From IMG/VR virus record IMGVR_UViG_2529293214_000009: a DNA stretch of 18,943 bases; one strand, written 5' to 3'. Position 1 is the first letter of the stretch. Each line of letters starts with the position of its first letter. This DNA is from a virus (Duplodnaviria > Heunggongvirae > Uroviricota > Caudoviricetes). Of the stretch, positions 1 through 3,000 are shown piece after piece. Position numbers: made by a program.

Positions 1-3000
1 TTACCATACTGAAAATGCTGTTTGAATGTTCATCTCTGAAAGAGGACTATGAATGAAAAAGGTATTGATTGCAGCACTTATTTCTGGTGTGTCTTTTGGC
101 GCTTTTGCACAGCAGGGCGGTTTCCAAGGGCCTGAAGCAGAGCGTTCAACAGTAGCGCAGGCAAAAGAACTGAAGGATGATGCATGGGTTATCCTTGAAG
201 GGAGCATCGTTAAAAAAGTGGGTGATGAACGTTATGAGTTTCGTGACAATAGCGGGACAATTGTCACGGATATCGATGACAGCATATGGGCCGGTCAGAA
301 TGTTTCTCCGAAAGACAAAGTAAGAATTGAGGGTGAAATTGATAAAGACCTGAGCAGTGTTGAAGTGGATGTAAAGGCACTGAAATTATTAAAGTAACCG
401 TCCCAGCTTGCTAAGCCCGTCTTACTGACGGGTTTTCTGTTTGTTATCACAGTATTTTTCAACAAAACACCGAATCTTATCCGGTGCGCTGTAAAACCCC
501 GTCCTTCAGGGCGTGGAGGATGTCAAATGGCGTATATTTGGATATAAGAAAGCCATCCAATACTGGCTGAAAAAACTCCTCATCGATATCATCGTGGGCC
601 TGAATAGTTCCATCCGCAATTCTGATTGCCGGTATTGTTCCCCGGCGATAAGGGGTGAACATCATCCCGGTTACATCAGATCGCCTAATAACATATCAAG
701 ATTATTTTGCTCATAAATGCTATTCGCCATTACCGTTGCTGCTTCAGCTTAATGAAACGCATAGATCCGCCATGCTTTTTCAGCAAATACGCTGCCATTT
801 GCGCAACTTTTTCTTCATTAAACATAAATCGGCTCTCTGTATCACATGAAATGCTCTTCTGACTATATGTTAATAGCTCCGGTTATTACAGGTCAATGAG
901 TGTTTATTTCTTAATCAGCCCCGCACTTCCGTACGGGGCCATTTCTGTTAATCCACTCCCACTTTTTTGTTGTACTCGCGGTTAAACCGATCCACGGCAA
1001 TTTTCATATCCCGCTCTACCGATTTCACCATCGCCGACTGTTGCGCCAGACTGAGAGTACTGTCGGCGTAAATGGCATCACGCTGTTTACGCAAATCCTT
1101 CAGTCTCTTCCGGGTATCCTGCATAAGCCCGTTCATCGACAATTTTCCGTTGTTCTCGTCAATGAACGCCGTTCTTTCTGCACCGGTCAGACTCTTCAGC
1201 TCTGCGTGATACTGCGCAATCTCTGTCATCCGGTCGTACATCTTCTGCTGGTCTGCATACGGCATCACCTCCCCCGAAATTTTCCCCAGGAAGGGCACCT
1301 GCTGTTCCGGTATATCAATACCATTCAGCGATTTCACCGCCGCATCCGTGGTTTTGGAAATGAAGCGCCCTGTCCCTCCGGAGATATAGTCAATCCAGAA
1401 TTTCAGCGATTCCGGTGTGATATCCACCGCGCCGGGACGGTACTGGCTGCCACCTGAGAACGCATTCAGCCAGGATGCAAACGCCTTGTACGCTTCTGGC
1501 GTTGAACGTCTTCCCAGCTGGCTGTCAGGTTTTGGTGTACCAAACGGCATGTTCTCCTGGTAAATCTGCGCCCCCATGAAGTTTTCATTCATGGCAAGGT
1601 TCGCAAACGGACGCAGAATGGTCGGCGCTGCATTTTTCAGCAATGCCCCGGACAGTGTTTCCGACGTCTCACTGCCAATCGGGCTGAATGCACCAAGCAC
1701 ACCACCAACAACATTACCGGCAGCACGGGACGCCGTCAGGTCACCCGCCGCCACACCTTCAGCAGTATGCCCGAGCAGGAAGAAAACGTTGTACCCGTAA
1801 GGCAGAGGAATACTCCAGTACTCTCCGGCCTTGCCCCCGAACACCGATTTCATAATGACGAGGTTACGCTCTTTCACATGAGACGGCACCTTGTCATACC
1901 AGTTAACCCCGTCATCATCCTCACCCGCCACGCTGCGGTTAAGCGAGCCAAGCAGATAACCTGCTCCCACAGCGGCAAGCGCGATTTTCTGCGGAACATT
2001 CAGATTCTTCCAGCGAAGGCGCTCCAGTAAAGGTCCCTCACCATTAAGATGTCCGAGCGTTCTCACCAGATTTGCCGTTCCCTGAATGCTGGCGTTGGCG
2101 AACATGTACAGCGAATTCATCAGCGCCCCCTGCTCACCACGACGGTTAAAGTTCACCGTCATGTTTTTGGCAAGAGACGCCGCCTGCTGGCGTGACAAAC
2201 CGGCATCACGGGCGTGCTTATAGGCAGAAAGACGCAGAGCGTTTTCAACCGCACCGTTGGCATCCTCGACAAGGTTAAGGAACGAATTCCATGCACCGAT
2301 ACTCTGGCCTTTCCATCCCCCCTTCGCCAGTGAGACAAGGCGATCCATTTCCTTCTGCTGGCCTTCAAGGTCACCCATGTTAAACCAGCCGGTTTTCCCT
2401 CCGTCCTCAACAAACTCTTTCCACACCTTCTGCCACTGTGCACCTTTTCCCGTGAGGGTTTTACCACGCAGACTGGCGTATACGGCTGACATGGCAGAAC
2501 GGCTGTCTTTCACCACAGCCAGGGCGGATAAGTTATCCAGCCCTTTCAGTTTACCGTCGCTCCTTCCCTGCTCCGCCTTCAGGTTCATCACCGCCGTCTG
2601 CACGTCACGGATGAAGTTACTGACCAGGAATTCCGGGTTATACGACGTGTTCACCGTTGCCAGGAAGCGGTTAACTTTCCCCAGCGTACGAACAAAGGCA
2701 TTGCTGGTTTCCGGTCCCATACTCTTCATCGCACGCATCAGGCGCGGATCATGGAGTTTGATGTAGTACGTTTTGCCGTTCTTTTTGGTGGTGAAGTACC
2801 GGTCTGCCATCATTGCCATCGGTACAGGGCGTTCGACAACTTCGCGAATGGTTTCACCAGTTTCCTGGTCCTTGCGCTCTGCAATCGTCCGCATGGTATC
2901 CGGTCTGTCATCGGTGAATACCTGCCAGTAATCCTTGTCGGGATTATCCTGCACCAGTTTCAGGAAGGCGTTACCCACTTCGTTTTTGCGATGGCGGATC

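Follow-up and report, generated by a model that had tools for sequence, protein, structure and literature searches.

The window considered here, i.e., the whole stretch of viral DNA that was analysed (18,943 nt), raises the question of what the short open reading frames (ORFs) downstream of its giant ORF represent: genes in their own right, a single gene broken by frameshifts, or the wreckage of an accessory module. The evidence below argues with high confidence that positions 448-825 (minus strand) are a non-functional remnant of a type II toxin-antitoxin (TA) operon, panA-panT, an accessory cassette located directly downstream of the LPD38 gene in Stx phages of the 933W/Sp5 type.

Results

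Source and context of the locus

Positions 400-950 of the window match, at 100% identity, the accessory region on the right-hand side of the Stx2a prophage Sp5/933W of Escherichia coli O157:H7 (strains Sakai and EDL933), and about 100 further finished genomes carry the same stretch with 100% identity. As judged from sequence, the window is a Stx2a prophage of the 933W/Sp5 type from E. coli O157:H7. The remnant module sits between a ygiW-family gene and the LPD38 giant gene, in the following context:

53-397, plus strand: ygiW-family gene, convergent with the remnant module
9368..948, minus strand: ORF of the LPD38/LPD5 'polyvalent' giant gene (2806 aa)
826..947, minus strand: spacer from the giant-gene stop to the panA start, with a hairpin 3' of the giant gene and one sigma-70-like site
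896..867: the sigma-70-like site, a candidate module promoter from a consensus scan in which promoter-like sites are not enriched over shuffles

The spacer is shared with intact loci, where it falls inside a block of 96% identity (window 1100..738, positions 5159-5522 of the intact reference contig L016). Three short ORFs in three different frames had been described here by the first-pass annotation, and they are indeed present on the minus strand (825..730; a stretch running to the TAA at 673..671; 665..477). Most RefSeq records have no annotation at the remnant, and the others have only a 62-aa hypothetical protein, WP_000971668.1 (H0151 in VT2-Sakai). A search of the whole window against Rfam (E ≤ 1) gave no match in 400-950, and a reading of this region as an RNA gene was dropped on that ground.

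The intact module

When the 31-aa peptide of the first short ORF was compared with phage genomes (tblastn), the identical remnant was found in about 50 Stx phages, and longer annotated genes were matched in PhiR5_2, Klebsiella phage ST13-OXA48phi12.5, Yersinia phages YeP1 and YeP2, and E. coli phage SKA5. The domain SocA_Panacea (PF13274) is recognised by Pfam in the PhiR5_2 protein (2.8e-19) and in the Klebsiella phage protein (5.8e-27). The Panacea gene is directly followed by a gene of about 135 aa in the Klebsiella and Yersinia phages and in SKA5, and in Klebsiella, Yersinia and E. coli phages the two genes either overlap by 4 nt or lie 3 nt apart. Pseudomonas phage Sirocco also has a gene after its Panacea gene, but that gene shows no relation to these partners and was dropped.

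A profile built from three partners retrieved more than 200 relatives of about 133 aa, all named 'hypothetical' and all lacking a Pfam domain; H20, H22, C58, H65 and S72 are invariant across the family. It should be noted that this family was reached through the phage neighbours of Panacea genes, the 62-aa ORF of the window itself finding no relatives.

The intact form of the locus is seen in six contigs (L016-L021), in which the LPD38 gene is followed by a 186-aa SocA_Panacea gene (panA) and then by a 133-aa gene (panT; its product is P0090, from E. coli), in the order and spacing of the window. Both genes are open in all six, and one assembly that carries the intact pair is GCA_018131805.1. 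In intact PanA, PF13274 covers aa 27-139 (Pfam, 7.5e-22), and panT starts 5 nt after the panA stop. The P0090 cluster is present on roughly 100 contigs. The intact allele thus has the two-gene, co-directional and tightly spaced arrangement of an antitoxin-toxin pair, and the window keeps the stop-spacer-start junction.

The PanT sequence matches no profile in Pfam (E < 1), NCBIfam or PADLOC, and a comparison of its profile with PDB sequences gave insignificant matches only (e.g., YnzC, E 0.19). Neither intact PanA nor intact PanT is represented by a model in NCBIfam or PADLOC. The AlphaFold2 model of P0090 (117 aligned relatives; pLDDT 94.9, pTM 0.89) has an SH3-like barrel of the MazF type. 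PanT is therefore confidently predicted to have a MazF/Kid-like fold with additional C-terminal helices, and it would belong to the MazF family by fold only.

PanA and PanT were defined by Kurata et al. 2022 (PNAS 119:e2102212119, PMC8832971), who validated nine pairs; 8 of the 25 PanT candidates that they tested were non-toxic in E. coli. In that study, the PanT of P. moraviensis has no CDD hit, is MazF-like by HHpred, is toxic and inhibits translation, and its PanA neutralises and complexes it. Dataset S1 of that study places this pair (PanA WP_083354365.1, PanT WP_083201923.1) in cluster T6, with the antitoxin first and overlaps of -1/-4, and lists many Enterobacterales members of T6, among them WP_101821906.1 (antitoxin then toxin, overlap -1). 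The latter is a member of the present family (P0022), and P0090 aligns with it from end to end at 45% identity (E 1e-43). Since P0022 is listed as T6 and P0090 is homologous to P0022, the intact module is classed here as a PanA-PanT(T6) type II TA pair, with toxicity and neutralisation attributed to it by analogy with the P. moraviensis relative; the link to that validated toxin runs, through P0022, via cluster membership in the published table.

Deletion in the antitoxin gene

The window DNA aligns with the intact locus of L016 in four blastn blocks (92-98% identity, E-values 1e-171 to 3e-9), a similarity that chance could not give:

Block 1: window 1100..738, L016 5159-5522, 96%
Block 2: window 745..627, L016 5921-6039, 98%
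Block 3: window 637..529, L016 6254-6362, 92%
Block 4: window 480..448, L016 6365-6397, 94%

The blocks are collinear and delimit two deletions and one insertion in the window relative to the intact locus. The first deletion lies in panA, of which the following parts are left:

825..730, minus strand: 31-aa ORF MFNEEKVAQMAAYLLKKHGGSMRFIKLKQQR, made of the panA head and an out-of-frame tail
745..825, minus strand: panA head, codons 1-27, MFNEEKVAQMAAYLLKKHGGSMRFIKL, identical to intact 186-aa PanA
738..745: deletion 1 junction, from blastn blocks and Pfam coordinates
730..744, minus strand: out-of-frame end of the 31-aa ORF, KQQR*, created by the deletion; in the other frame these bases are the start of the panA tail
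671..744, minus strand: panA tail, codons 163/164-186 and stop, EAATVMANSIYEQNNLDMLLGDLM*, with one substitution relative to the intact protein; the stop is the TAA at 673..671

The Panacea-like N-terminus noticed in the first-pass annotation is genuine, as the first 27 residues are those of an intact Panacea-domain protein at the same position in related prophages. Orthology of the locus with panA is indicated by the match of 27/27 N-terminal and 23/24 C-terminal residues, by 96-98% DNA identity to L016 panA, and by the LPD38 neighbour upstream in both. Relative to L016, 406 nt are absent and PanA aa 28-162 are lost; 406 is not a multiple of three, and therefore the panA head and tail are in different frames. 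PhiR5_2 independently gives the same deletion, in this comparison of 397 nt, PhiR5_2 being without a 9-nt repeat (blastn; the window matches both sides of the gap).

Because the Panacea domain occupies aa 27-139 of intact PanA, the whole domain was lost together with aa 28-162, and therefore no set of single-base corrections restores it. Consistent with this, Pfam searches with the 31-aa, the 25-aa and the concatenated fragments gave no PF13274 but only a chance match to WH_PARP12 (E 0.17), and the domain is present in the intact orthologue. The 31-aa remnant has a family of its own, phrog_28947. The window copy is a pseudogene of the PanA gene and not a PanA. The earlier description of a decayed Panacea gene holds in that the head and tail of PanA are kept and a frameshift-tolerant alignment to an intact Panacea gene exists (blastn against PhiR5_2 and L016), while the Panacea domain itself is essentially gone. 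The view of one gene broken by frameshifts, in contrast, must be replaced by that of an internal deletion in panA, with the third ORF derived from another gene, panT.

Deletion and insertion in the toxin gene

The remains of panT are the following:

665..477, minus strand: 62-aa ORF in the third frame, identical with H0151, WP_000971668.1 and phrog_1925
627..665, minus strand: panT head, codons 1-13 (MMFTPYRRGTI…), starting 5 nt after the panA stop, within block 2
627..637: deletion 2 junction, an imperfect 10-11-nt direct repeat (CAATnCnGGC) at which the blastn blocks overlap
529..637, minus strand: C-terminal part of panT, codons ~85/88-121 (…AIRIADGTIQAHDDIDEEFFQPVLDGFLISKYTP), from blastp, family HMM and blastn
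477..526, minus strand: 50-bp unit TTGACATCCTCCACGCCCTGAAGGACGGGGTTTTACAGCGCACCGGATAA, inserted in the panT 3' end
448..480, minus strand: stranded last panT codons (…IRRFVEKYC), beyond the new stop (block 4)

Deletion 2 removed 225 nt (75 codons) in frame, with loss of PanT aa ~13-87; by the secondary structure of the model, each of the five beta strands that form the predicted barrel lies in this segment. The direct repeat at its junction suggests that the segment was lost by slippage or by a microhomology-mediated event. Residues 13-49 of the 62-aa ORF are 92% identical to residues 88-124 of P0090 (blastp, E 5e-22). The family HMM matches the ORF at its two ends only, at profile positions 3-12 and 90-127 (domain E 6.8e-10), and in alignment with the phage partners the ORF matches only at its N-terminal ~11 and C-terminal ~35 residues. 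Since its last 16 codons and TAA stop come from the insertion-sequence (IS) unit, the ORF is best read as a three-part mosaic of panT codons 1-13, panT codons ~88-121 and 16 IS-derived codons, and not as a credible gene.

It may be proposed instead that the 62-aa ORF is a genuine small gene, e.g., a domesticated PanT fragment whose remaining C-terminal helices serve as a decoy or a regulator, and that the panA fragments alone are a pseudogene. The ORF begins with an ATG set in the original panT surroundings, and its reading frame continues through deletion 2; several records annotate it, it has its own PHROG, and it is unchanged in about 100 complete genomes. This constancy, however, is uninformative on selection, because all the copies are ≥ 99% identical, clonal phage copies. 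Among 5.8 billion proteins searched, only the ORF itself and a 37-aa fragment were found; blastn of its middle part against E. coli genomes returned only identical Stx-phage copies, and no divergent, length-conserved homologue outside the Stx-phage lineage was found in either the protein or the E. coli genome searches. The ORF, moreover, lacks every beta strand of the PanT fold (as modelled), its 3' end is an IS scar, and a sister lineage (the JNEC-KY174 type) has lost most of it. A domesticated gene is therefore improbable, and the mosaic reading is retained. The short ORFs show no conservation of their own: all copies are ≥ 99% identical and confined to one phage lineage, and further deletion has removed the ORFs elsewhere. 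Some expression of the remnant ORFs is conceivable, the start codons, the spacer and the promoter-like site being intact.

The 50-bp unit

L016 lacks about 48-50 bp that the window has at 477-526/528, its positions 6362 and 6365 corresponding to window 529 and 480. The same unit, with identical boundaries and unrelated flanks, is found in panT of Sp5, downstream of tfa in HK97, upstream of stx1 in Stx1 phages (between Q and stx1A in BP-4795, 933J and H30) and in many plasmids, and further such copies occur in Serratia, Leminorella, Mangrovibacter, Avibacterium, Zooshikella and a Zetaproteobacterium. In E. coli 042 it stands immediately after an IS200/IS605 tnpA. A derived C-to-A change in the stem is common to the E. 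coli copies. In a scan of one genome per species, the unit core was found in at least 120 places in many phyla, often at contig ends; this count was obtained with a relaxed pattern, a pattern specific to the E. coli variant giving 0 matches.

The elements have a conserved right end, …GCGCCTTATATCCCC-GCCCTGAAGGACGGGG-TTTTACGGCGCACnnGATAA, beyond which the flanks diverge. A left end, TTGACATCCTCCCC-GCCCTrAAGGACGGGG-ATTCCT…, lies upstream, at 1.2-1.8 kb in many loci and at 226-520 bp in short derivatives. In Pantoea, a full copy has genes for a Y1_Tnp TnpA and, divergent from it, an OrfB_IS605/TnpB. The ends of IS200/IS605 elements with their subterminal hairpin are present in the unit, and its boundaries are sharp. 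Because the left-end start with the hairpin, and the hairpin with the right-end tail, match the full copies, the unit is the left end of an IS605-group element (IS200/IS605 family) fused to the right end through a shared hairpin. Boundary analysis ruled out a REP/ERIC-type repeat, a promoter (the unit begins with TTGACA), a terminator and a C-terminal coding fragment of tnpA as explanations of 477-528.

The unit contains no transposase ORF (neither TnpA nor TnpB), and it is either a collapse product of an IS605-group insertion or a minimal derivative. That it is a minimal, single-hairpin, non-autonomous IS605-group derivative mobilised in trans by TnpA, and not a passive scar, is considered rather unlikely. 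If this were true, no mobile IS200/IS605 derivative would be shorter, and the unit would repeatedly cause insertion mutations and bring hairpins into the accessory regions of phages.

Decay alleles in E. coli

None of 5,426 complete E. coli genomes carries the intact module (≥ 80% coverage), which is seen only in draft assemblies; module remnants are present in 176 of the 5,426. At least four different deletion or decay alleles are found among the remnants. The sizes of the classes listed below are approximate, being derived from even sampling of the ranked matches combined with further searches:

Window type: ~100 genomes
POCJ13/O104:H4 type: ~40 genomes; one 864-nt deletion from panA codon 41 to beyond the panT stop
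PhiR5_2 type: ~18 genomes; panA kept, with TAA at codon 9, and annotated from M10 as WP_032270877.1; panT cut after codon 6
JNEC-KY174 type: a few genomes; window type with a further deletion of the panT remnant
IS3 insertion allele: 1 genome

These alleles bear on the possibility that the remnant DNA is kept for another use, e.g., to terminate transcription or provide insulation where the late operon that includes the giant gene meets the convergent ygiW-hok accessory genes. By a consensus scan, 380-1000 has more terminator-like hairpins than expected (5 against 0.4); one of them (487..467) spans the junction of the IS unit with panT, and another (413..435) follows ygiW. Such consensus scans, however, are no evidence of function, and in the POCJ13/O104:H4 and PhiR5_2 alleles other sequence stands in place of the entire region, with no apparent harm, which makes a retained function of this kind very improbable. 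Sequencing or assembly frameshifts in an otherwise intact Panacea gene, the model implicit in the first-pass annotation, would produce three consecutive short ORFs in three frames, but this explanation is practically eliminated by the 100% identical sequence in about 100 independently finished genomes, including Sakai and EDL933, and by the size of the region, which falls short of the intact module by 397-406 nt plus 225 nt, so that single-base corrections cannot rebuild the Panacea domain.

Discussion

Decay of the module

The preferred reading of the locus, a dead panA-panT operon, may be put together as follows. In the intact module the toxin would inhibit translation and PanA would neutralise it by direct binding, by analogy with the validated T6 PanT of P. 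moraviensis. The 406-nt deletion took the entire Panacea domain and shifted the frame; the 225-nt in-frame deletion, between short direct repeats, took the barrel core of the toxin; and an IS605-group element landed in the panT 3' end, where it is now represented by the 50-bp scar of fused ends. As to which of the three lesions came first, we infer that panT was most probably inactivated before, or together with, the deletion in panA, since the loss of an antitoxin is safe only after its toxin has been disabled. The PhiR5_2 allele, in which the toxin is gone and the antitoxin lingers, fits this expected order of loss.

The earlier suggestion that a degraded gene of the antitoxin type, lying downstream of the giant ORF, is a sign of a former accessory module is thus borne out by the match of the locus to the intact module. 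With regard to annotation, the 62-aa (H0151/WP_000971668.1, phrog_1925) and 31-aa (phrog_28947) ORFs of a much-studied phage genome are corrected from genes to pseudogene debris. The at least four independent decay alleles may serve as a natural example of the dismantling of a TA cassette, with the toxin disabled and the antitoxin following, and the intact PanA-PanT(T6) module in some Stx-type prophages is a candidate for phage defence or prophage stabilisation. No literature linking Panacea or SocA to Stx phages was found.

Comparison with known systems

The 50-bp unit resembles the elements of the IS605 group (divergent tnpA/tnpB, IS609-like) and the PATEs in having the left-end start TTGACATCCTCC…, the shared hairpin and the right-end tail …TTTTACrGCGCACnnGATAA. 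It differs from these elements in having a single hairpin and no transposase, and in its length of 50 bp, compared with 226-520 bp for the PATE-like copies in the scan.

SocA of Caulobacter crescentus is the founding Panacea/DUF4065 antitoxin, and it serves ClpXP as a proteolytic adaptor for SocB, a toxin that blocks replication. The PF13274 SocA_Panacea domain is common to SocA and intact PanA, while the partner here is an unrelated protein, predicted to have a MazF fold. Compared with MazF, PemK, Kid and CcdB (4mzm, 1m1f, 1vub), PanT shows only 7-15% sequence identity and no Pfam PemK/MazF match; in the model it has extra C-terminal helices (H104-116 and H122-132), and its partner is a Panacea antitoxin and not MazE or PemI.

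The closest likeness is to the PanA-PanT pairs of cluster T6. The intact allele has the Panacea antitoxin first, with the toxin 1-5 nt later or overlapping; the PanA N-terminus is MFNEEKVAQ here and MIFSEQKVAQ in P. moraviensis (PMC8832971); and the toxin family includes a listed T6 member and has a predicted MazF-like fold. In those sections of Kurata et al. 2022 on which the comparison draws, no entry for the E. coli Stx-phage module or its decay series was noted. Unlike the T6 pairs, the window copy has no Panacea domain and no toxin barrel, and it carries an IS scar. The panA-panT wreck leaves the understanding of PanAT systems and of Stx phages unchanged: it is an ordinary dead accessory module of a described family and not a new system.

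Direct repeats around the panA-panT cassette

In intact loci, the cassette formed by panA (the Panacea antitoxin gene) and panT (the gene of the predicted MazF-fold toxin PanT) is bracketed by direct repeats of ~148 bp, which are 92-96% identical. In L016, one of the contigs with an intact cassette, the pair lies at 5195-5341 and 6542-6689, and likewise pairs are found in L017, L021, L003, L004, and L012. The second repeat is a duplicate of the 3' end of the LPD38 giant gene (window 1064..918), and the window carries the first copy only. The bracketing repeats suggest recombination as the route by which the cassette was gained or can be lost.

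The decayed panT end and its surroundings

53-397, plus strand: YgiW/BOF-family periplasmic OB-fold gene (NirD/YgiW/YdeI stress-tolerance family, ECs_1244)
413-435: predicted strong bidirectional hairpin terminator, between ECs_1244 and the panA-panT module
467-487, minus strand: 9-bp hairpin followed by a T-run
477-526, minus strand: 50-bp unit of the IS605 group (IS200/IS605 family), whose left-end start is connected through the shared hairpin with the right-end tail

Further copies of the 50-bp unit occur in L009 (1201-1251), L010 (1201-1248), L011 (1201-1241), L012, and L022-L141. Copies with the same boundaries and unrelated flanks are present in HK97, Stx1 phages (upstream of stx1), plasmids, and several further genera. 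Two readings of the unit are possible: a collapse scar that has arisen repeatedly, or a minimal element that can be mobilised. At its junction with panT, the right-end tail CACCGGAT pairs with the adjoining panT flank ATTCGGTG, and the resulting hairpin with its T-run is terminator-like by score; it may be due either to chance or to target recognition by the IS. ECs_1244 is convergent to the module.

The Panacea protein of the PhiR5_2-type prophages

WP_032270877.1, annotated as 'Panacea domain-containing protein', is encoded at 2501-3052 in L004 and at 2946-3470 in L006 and L007. The ancestral frame has TAA at codon 9, the annotated start is Met10, and the 9-nt (MKL) repeat is absent. Its toxin partner is lost. 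Possibly the protein is an orphan antitoxin or one in decay.

A hok/sok-type locus

12733..12593, minus strand: Hok/Gef-like ORF of 46 aa, MSQKSLITVTICMTVIFTIWMLHGSLCEFRLNLWGAEFAAFLQCKQ
12882..12720, minus strand: sub-threshold Rfam sok match (35.6 bits, gathering score 59; E 7e-5)
13700..12966, minus strand: Lom/Ail-like outer-membrane gene

The ORF and the sok match overlap, and the interval 12593-12882 is a hok/sok-type type I toxin-antitoxin locus adjoining the Lom/Ail-like gene. In Sakai, a second hok gene (ECs_1245) lies just beyond the left edge of the window.

Comparison of PanT with MazF

In an alignment of 117 sequences of the PanT T6-type family (A4), H20, H22, C25, D27, C58, H65, S72, and Y76 are invariant or near-invariant, and the motifs HLHxxCxDP and HxFIxHxS are found. 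This set of residues bears a closer resemblance to a metal-binding or catalytic arrangement than to the active site usual in MazF. Despite the common fold, the T6-type toxins may work by a chemistry different from that of MazF.
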